Source of the DNA: a virus
Lineage: Duplodnaviria; Heunggongvirae; Uroviricota; Caudoviricetes
Virus record (IMG/VR): IMGVR_UViG_2671180637_000010
Span: 1-4,010 of that record
Reading direction: 5' to 3' (one strand)
Length of the DNA: 4,010 nt
The translations under genes were made by a program, and so were the position numbers. Within the stretch, counting starts at the first letter, position 1, and each line of letters begins with the position of its first letter. This document shows, one piece after another, positions 416-615 of this stretch. Below the pieces are notes generated by a model. The model made no database searches. It was not told the origin of the DNA and saw nothing but the letters and a program-made list of their open reading frames with translations.

Positions 416-469
416 ATATCACCTCAAATAAGTTGTTTGCTGCGAAAGTAAATACGCTTAAGTTACCTG

Positions 470-607
470 TTATTTATTCCACCAAGTTCCGTATCTATCT
501 ATCCAGTTACACCAATCATCGACACTCCATTTTGTTGTGTCGCATTTTGGCAACTGGCATGAATATCTACCTTCTTTGTAAAGTCGGCGTTTGACTTTCT
601 TGAGCAT
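470..607 (-). CDS. Hypothetical 45-aa Cys/Trp-rich protein (MLKKVKRRLYKEGRYSCQLPKCDTTKWSVDDWCNWIDRYGTWWNK)
   Basis: Own translation. ATG at 607..605 lies 8 nt after the N stop with a GAGGTG Shine-Dalgarno 5 nt upstream; stop TAA at 472..470. It occupies the position where lambda has sieB. Below the track cutoff. Confidence 0.3.
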   Translation of the reverse strand: MLKKVKRRLYKEGRYSCQLPKCDTTKWSVDDWCNWIDRYGTWWNK

Positions 608-615
608 GGCTCACC

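Follow-up and report, generated by a model that had tools for sequence, protein, structure and literature searches.

The 4,010 nucleotides analysed here (positions 1 to 4,010 of the Caudoviricetes record IMGVR_UViG_2671180637_000010, referred to below as the window) hold a lambdoid immunity and early-left region, and we consider it likely that the interval between the antitermination gene N and the small gene orf28 is a swapped gene cassette, situated at a recombination hot spot that follows N immediately in the pL operon of lambdoid phages. Where lambda carries sieB, the window has a 45-codon gene of the DUF5484 family. The confidence expressed here, which is good but short of complete, covers the anatomy of the cassette and the logic of its expression.

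Replacement of sieB in the N–orf28 interval

Measured from the N stop to the orf28 start, the interval occupies exactly 200 bp (416–615). A preliminary description of the window had put it at about 200 bp and had given some 680 bp with sieB at the same place in lambda, and both figures hold: the lambda genome (NC_001416) has the start of orf28 at 34357 and the end of N at 35037, leaving 679 bp, within which sieB lies at 34482–35036 on the plus strand, convergent with N. The identity of this lambda open reading frame (ORF) was checked with Pfam SieB (PF14163, E 1e-29). The same short interval, the presence of which in lambda would have undone the comparison, does not occur in NC_001416.

BlastN comparison finds homology between the window and lambda at 1–440 (98.9%) and 692–959 (97.4%) and none between, and together with a direct alignment (A2) it places the breaks at 440/441 and 691/692. 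The non-lambda segment is 251 bp long (441–691, minus strand) and replaces 722 bp of lambda (34382–35103), comprising the whole of sieB, about 100 bp upstream of sieB, and the 3′-terminal 25 codons of N. The window N gene (616–948, minus strand; PHROG 271) encodes an antitermination protein of 110 residues that ends in ...YSKPRCEMGVTCSGRQKQRGKSIPAYYD and whose N-terminal arginine-rich peptide, which binds boxB and NusA, matches the N36 family (PF11438) at residues 2–36 with E 1.6e-26. Alignment places the right junction inside this gene, directly after the codons for ...WYSKP (P89); past this point the window protein has PRCEMGVTCSGRQKQRGKSIPAYYD and the lambda protein PGERGITCSGRQKIKGKSIPLI, two C-termini whose relationship is still visible at the protein level but which have diverged as DNA. 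The last 25 codons of the window gene (616–691, minus strand) are a non-lambda allele that moves with the cassette. The divergence of the N C-terminus had been noticed before and read as a mosaic junction, and the break can now be assigned by BlastN and alignment to the 3′ end of N. To the left, the first gene beyond the cassette is orf28 (329–415, minus strand), a small acidic ORF homologous to lambdap47.

When lambda SieB was searched against the window with tblastn no significant similarity was found, the best match extending over 6 residues at E 7.2, and by this search SieB, which the preliminary description suspected the phage may lack, is absent at the locus. The closest whole-length relatives of the window are prophages of O121:H19 Shiga toxin-producing Escherichia coli, which match 1169–4010 at 99.6%. 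Since these prophages carry a SieB-family gene in the N–orf28 slot, at the same two breakpoints, we take the window cassette to be a swap on that backbone. The window prophage is without sieB at this site, unlike these relatives, and its lysogens should not show SieB-type exclusion. As a separate observation, the combination of features found across the full window (a lambda-type cI, an NYN gene, an insert upstream of N and the DUF5484 cassette) is intact in none of 5,426 complete E. coli genomes, among which the best whole-window match, to the O121:H19 prophages, covers 89%.

The sieB gene is an accessory gene, dispensable for growth, and Ranade and Poteete are said to have described in 1993 how SieB, expressed in the lysogen, aborts superinfecting phage. 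The two occupants of the slot share their position between N and orf28 and little else: lambda SieB (PF14163) has 184 residues with hydrophobic segments and is encoded on the opposite strand, whereas the 45-residue protein is unrelated to it and soluble, and its gene is oriented with pL, with no promoter of its own found.

The arrangement as such is already known. Phages SfI and Sf6 have the same gene in the same slot, with the order N, gene 36, orf28/ral (SfI gp44, YP_009147490; Sf6 gene 36 protein, NP_958212); in SfI the interval is 100% identical and the protein identical, in Sf6 the interval is 98.5% identical and the protein one residue off (98% identical), and both phages have N with the same C-terminal allele as the window. 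The backbones are unlike, with the window having a lambda-type cI and cro, an NYN gene replacing rexAB, and an extra 126-bp insert upstream of N, and Sf6 a 434-type immunity region. The interval is identical in arrangement to those published for SfI (2013) and Sf6 (2004), everything within its coordinates is already annotated in published phage genomes, and we regard it as ordinary phage mosaicism of little significance for biology at large. A comparable case is provided by phage L: P22 has a sieB gene at this site and L does not, and although the N analogue gp24 of L can be interchanged with its P22 counterpart, the C-terminal 25–35 residues of the two proteins bear no relation to each other (PMC8022706). 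The pattern is the same as in the window, namely sieB absent and the C-terminus of the N analogue swapped, with function retained (PMC8022706).

A small gene of the DUF5484 family

The gene within the interval (138 bp, 470–607, minus strand) encodes a 45-residue protein of DUF5484 and PHROG 1871. The preliminary description had picked out a cysteine- and tryptophan-rich ORF with a good ribosome-binding site, which is what we find: there are 3 cysteines and 5 tryptophans, and the Shine-Dalgarno (SD) sequence GAGGTGA is a 7-nucleotide (nt) match to the anti-SD. The protein scores 46.7 bits against Pfam DUF5484 (E 2.5e-12, residues 5–42 on model positions 3–41 of 43), for which the gathering cutoff is 27 bits, and matches PHROG 1871 at E 1.6e-22. 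BLASTP shows 54% identity over 39 residues with gp55.4 of the T4-like phage RB69 (E 2e-15), and tblastn 53.8% identity with an ORF of T4 itself. From these comparisons we judge that the ORF is a real gene.

The relationship with T4 is not new, since the Sf6 GenBank record already states 'similar to phage T4 gene Orf55.4'. T4-type gp55.4 is a homologous mini-protein of 44–45 residues with the shared motif LYxxGxYxxxxP...W...DWIxWIDxxGxW, but the T4-type genes have no nucleotide similarity to the window gene, their proteins are without the cysteine residues, and the T4-like phages are virulent, their gene having 55.3 and 55.5 on either side within the nrd-55 region. The T4-type gene belongs to a block of small and largely uncharacterised phage genes, which in RB69 is the nrd-55 block.

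With tblastn the protein matches 1,038 of 50,697 phage records, nearly all of them T4-like phages of Escherichia, Klebsiella, Shigella, Enterobacter and Yersinia at about 43–55% identity, and an exhaustive HMMER scan of 1.84 billion representative proteins, with clusters defined at 50% identity, recovers 56 clusters at E <= 1e-3, which share a conserved motif. The 200-bp interval as a whole is 100% identical in SfI and 98–99.5% identical in Sf6, mEpX1, N7 and phi458, and is present in 125 of the 5,426 complete E. coli genomes. The NCBI Prokaryotic Genome Annotation Pipeline (PGAP) leaves the 45-codon ORF uncalled in RefSeq E. coli genomes that carry the interval, and the gene routinely goes without annotation in this species. 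We note that PGAP leaves both this gene and orf28 uncalled in E. coli strains MLI023K1 (locus L005, 3966–4237) and MB50 (locus L009), and that phage records annotate both.

The product is soluble and basic (pI 9.6, 5.7 kDa), and because no hydrophobic segment is found in it we do not consider it a membrane peptide. In an alignment of 42 family sequences (A1) P20 and G40 are invariant, and at K6, Y15, W27, W32, I36, D37 and W42 conservation reaches 90% or more; all nine of these signature residues are present in the window protein, and the family consensus is LYxxGxYxCxVPPVxTxxWxxxDWIxWIDxxGxW. An AlphaFold2 model built with the family alignment has a mean predicted local distance difference test score of 84, with helices at 3–12 and 29–39 and strands at 15–17 and 40–42, and the protein is accordingly predicted to fold as a helix-strand-helix-strand mini-domain, of which the conserved aromatic residues would form the core. 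The model matches uncharacterised proteins of phage AR1 and Erwinia phage pEa_SNUABM_47 in BFVD with template modelling (TM) scores of 0.79–0.92; the PDB yielded no match either to the A1 sequence profile or with Foldseek.

The preliminary description had left open whether the 45-codon ORF is a remnant or a different small protein, and of these the second stands, the protein being a member of DUF5484, and the first does not. As a candidate sieB remnant the ORF was rejected, as it lies on the strand opposite to lambda sieB and has no similarity to SieB. To the broader view that it is a non-functional remnant or chance ORF left by a sieB deletion we give almost no credence: it is very short and is uncalled by PGAP in RefSeq E. 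coli genomes, but the protein clears the Pfam gathering cutoff and shows 54% identity with RB69 gp55.4, the family signature is kept across 42 diverse sequences, the fold is predicted confidently, the 7-nt SD is perfect, and SieB similarity is absent and the strand the opposite one. Moreover a truly empty site, in HK544, has just 8 nt from the N stop to the orf28 ATG.

The cysteine spacing (CQLPKC...WC), which the preliminary description suggested might bind metal, does not survive the family comparison, in that no cysteine column of A1 is invariant or nearly so. The DUF5484 signature is, by this alignment, aromatic and not cysteine-based. That the product is a small cysteine-dependent zinc protein appears highly improbable, even though it has three cysteines in 45 residues with CX4C spacing, and even though a DnaJ-like CXXCXGXG extension, lying outside the DUF5484 module, is found at the N-terminus of the distant member P0024. 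There are only the three cysteines and no histidine, and none of the cysteine columns reaches 90% conservation: C17 is at best the majority residue, most members have V, G, M or I in place of C22 and C33, and in RB69 gp55.4 none of the three positions is a cysteine.

With a confidently predicted fold and a presence in more than 1,000 phage genomes, common to virulent and temperate enterobacterial phages, this mini-protein would make a reasonable target for functional screens of small proteins.

Boundary repeat and occupancy of the slot

The left edge of the cassette is formed by a boundary repeat of about 31 nt, GCAGCAAACAACTTATTTGAGGTGATATATG (413–443, minus strand), which is a copy of the HK544-type 3′ end of N (...SKPLI, stop) followed by the orf28 SD and ATG. 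Its 31 nt agree with the N/orf28 junction of HK544 at all positions but one, where 0 such matches would be expected at random, and the linker pattern can be written GCAGCAAAC(C/A)ACTTATTTGAGGTGA. Exact copies of a 25-nt core are found in SfI, Sf6, MLI023K1, mEpX1, HK544 and MB50 (twice in MB50), which make up six of the nine loci fetched at that point. The empty site of HK544 displays the linker in its simplest form, N ending in ...GGCAGCAAACCACTTATT-TGA-GGTGATAT-ATG(orf28) with the N stop embedded in the orf28 SD and 8 nt separating stop and ATG. In the window the region of the N stop, CCAGCTTATTACGATTGAGGTGAGCCATG, is a diverged copy of the boundary repeat and doubles as the ribosome-binding site of the 45-codon gene.

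Among the relatives the slot is seen to be empty (HK544), to hold sieB (lambda and the O121 prophages), to hold the DUF5484 gene by itself (the window, SfI and Sf6), or to hold three cassettes (MB50). In E. coli MB50 (L009, 760–1700) the three between N and orf28 are the DUF5484 gene, a DUF7167 gene and a hypothetical ORF of 74 codons, with the exact linker core GCAGCAAACCACTTATTTGAGGTGA after the first and third cassettes and a diverged, truncated version after the second. In mEpX1 a Nun-like gene is followed downstream by a unit made up of an N 3′ remnant, the DUF5484 gene and the linker (corresponding to window 405–702, 97% identical), and in Bas106 the ORF has been joined to the linker by a small deletion, which gives it the tail ...SKPLI-stop, with the same ending as HK544 N. 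The window, with a repeat at 413–443, a diverged copy at the N stop and variable occupancy of the slot among its relatives, has the organisation of a linker-flanked exchangeable cassette.

The empty, single-cassette and three-cassette states point to linker recombination as the route of exchange, and the cassettes would be traded by recombination between these short conserved linkers. The Sf6 record annotates a boundary sequence, bsq4, nearby, and lambdoid boundary sequences flank exchangeable modules; the states of the window, HK544, MB50, mEpX1 and Bas106 fit the 'boundary sequence' idea annotated there. We found no published description of the linker made of the N 3′ end (...SKPLI, stop) and the orf28 SD as a cassette-flanking repeat, although this may reflect the limits of the literature searched.

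Two of these loci merit separate mention. The MB50 locus illustrates, within a short stretch, the stacking of cassettes by way of linkers. In mEpX1 (L007, 1700–1830) the N 3′ remnant is 87 bp long (window 616–702, 97% identical) and lies between the Nun-like and DUF5484 genes, and its junction looks like a mixture of the boundary linker with N codons 86–89.

Expression, possible roles and neighbouring features

The N stop codon TGA (618–616) overlaps the SD GAGGTGA (617–611) of the 45-codon gene (611–618, minus strand, read from the sequence), and this SD lies 3 nt before the ATG; orf28 is preceded by the same SD at the same 3-nt spacing. The gene is oriented with pL, the -35 and -10 hexamers of which lie at 1290–1262 in the minus-strand direction, and a simple consensus scan of the minus strand found no promoter-like or terminator-like sites from pL (1290–1262) to 169. 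Because no promoter or terminator belonging to the gene itself was found, and because the N stop is overlapped by its SD, it would be expressed early from pL and not in the lysogen. The ORF is probably translationally coupled to N; synthesis of its protein would be confined to lytic growth and induction, when it would be one of the early pL products and co-translated with N, and the gene would be silent in the repressed lysogen. A classical moron, with its own promoter and terminator, was considered and rejected, as neither flanks 470–607 on the minus strand and the gene depends on pL and an SD shared with the N stop.

SieB is expressed in the lysogen, so the cassette replaces sieB physically and not functionally, and the 45-residue protein would not be a functional substitute for SieB.

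The functional element of the interval could alternatively be an RNA structure or terminator equivalent to tL1, in place of the protein. The minus-strand RNA of 400–640 is more stable than shuffled sequences (z = -3.2; 1 of 200 shuffles as stable), and the lambda tL1 terminator presumably lies within the replaced segment. We nevertheless think this unlikely: the consensus scan picked up no minus-strand hairpin and U-run resembling a terminator within the interval, no Rfam match was obtained at E <= 1 across the whole window, and the fold consists of long-range pairing with a minimum free energy ensemble frequency of 0.001. The copies of the interval are 98–100% identical, too similar for covariation. 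The predicted 400–640 fold is dominated by pairing between two SD-containing regions.

As for the protein, we think it most likely an accessory protein, early and non-essential, with a host factor as its binding partner, in host takeover or counter-defence, although our confidence in any specific target is far below that in the cassette itself. The analogy is with the company the gene keeps, and we suggest a host-protein-binding role because the known neighbours act in this way early in infection, in host takeover or counter-defence; among lambdoid phages these are Ral and Gam, and in T4 they are gp55.1 and gp55.2.

One more specific possibility is that the protein mimics the omega/Rpb6/RpoK core and binds host RNA polymerase (RNAP), modulating transcription beside N in the lambdoid phages or the late-transcription machinery near gene 55 in the T4-like phages. 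The model shows a weak structural resemblance to Rpb6 and omega, which is a lead only, though its recurrence is curious for a gene adjoining an antiterminator. An RNAP mimic, if the protein is one, would account for the DUF5484 gene moving together with the 3′ end of N. The C-terminus of N has an RNAP-binding role. For a model of 45 residues, however, the scores hardly rise above noise, and hhalign comparison of E. coli RpoZ with A1 gives a probability of 0.1%, which is no signal. We hold such mimicry to be quite unlikely, and very unlikely in its most general form, in which DUF5484 and gp55.4 proteins would dock on host RNAP early as omega/Rpb6 core mimics and tune transcription in virulent T4-like and temperate lambdoid phages alike.

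Several points weigh against our view of the cassette as carrying a functional, early-expressed accessory gene. The lambdoid copies are nearly identical, and selection on the protein in these phages is for that reason deduced from the wider family; the lambdoid copy differs from that of Bas106 by three synonymous changes and one conservative change, and four differences are too few for an informative ratio of nonsynonymous to synonymous substitution rates. The sources searched, including an alignment-based search of an annotated protein collection, gave no functional name for any family member, the protein has no match in the PADLOC or NCBIfam libraries, and no experiment on any DUF5484 or gp55.4 protein turned up in the searchable literature. 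One preprint names gp55.4 among T2 transcripts, and the Sf6 evolution and SfI genome papers contain no discussion of the gene. Domain fusions are uninformative on function, with only DUF5484 recognised in longer family members, and the neighbourhoods of three diverse members are arrays of small unannotated phage genes that offer no functional clue. Coupling to N and early expression are suggested by the gene layout. Lastly, the consensus scan also found nothing in the sieB region of lambda, such that absent signals are weak evidence and uninformative on tL1.

Elsewhere in the window the immunity region includes cI (2500–3213, minus strand), cro (3314–3514) and cII. To the left of orf28 lies ral, which encodes an antirestriction protein of 59 residues (166–345, minus strand; Pfam Ral E 4.4e-44). 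This length is shared with SfI, compared with 66 residues in lambda and Sf6, and the window protein covers positions 1–59 of 66 in the Pfam model, the final seven residues being absent.

Directly upstream of the N start codon there is a 126-bp insertion (960–1085) flanked by GGAGAAT direct repeats, for which no DNA match was found in the 50,697 phage records or the O121 backbone. It contains a 43-codon ORF (MNNEALKEMIAKLLEDARRIQEVEPNAGTQSRIDEAMKLLKGE; about 950–1078, minus strand; PHROG 32391, E 3.7e-34), homologs of whose product occur in Pectobacterium, Serratia, Cronobacter and Shiga toxin phages. This ORF takes over the original SD of N, and N receives a duplicate SD; a gene in this position, separating N from its leader, could influence the translational control of N.

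At the position of rexA/rexB, between cI and pL, the window encodes a 285-residue NYN-domain protein (1515–2372, minus strand; Pfam NYN E 6.8e-9, PHROG 5783 E 1.5e-119), with weak PADLOC matches to HEC-09 and an NYN nuclease. It is probably a prophage-expressed accessory gene of the defence type, and in the O121:H19 prophages it is split or marked as a pseudogene.
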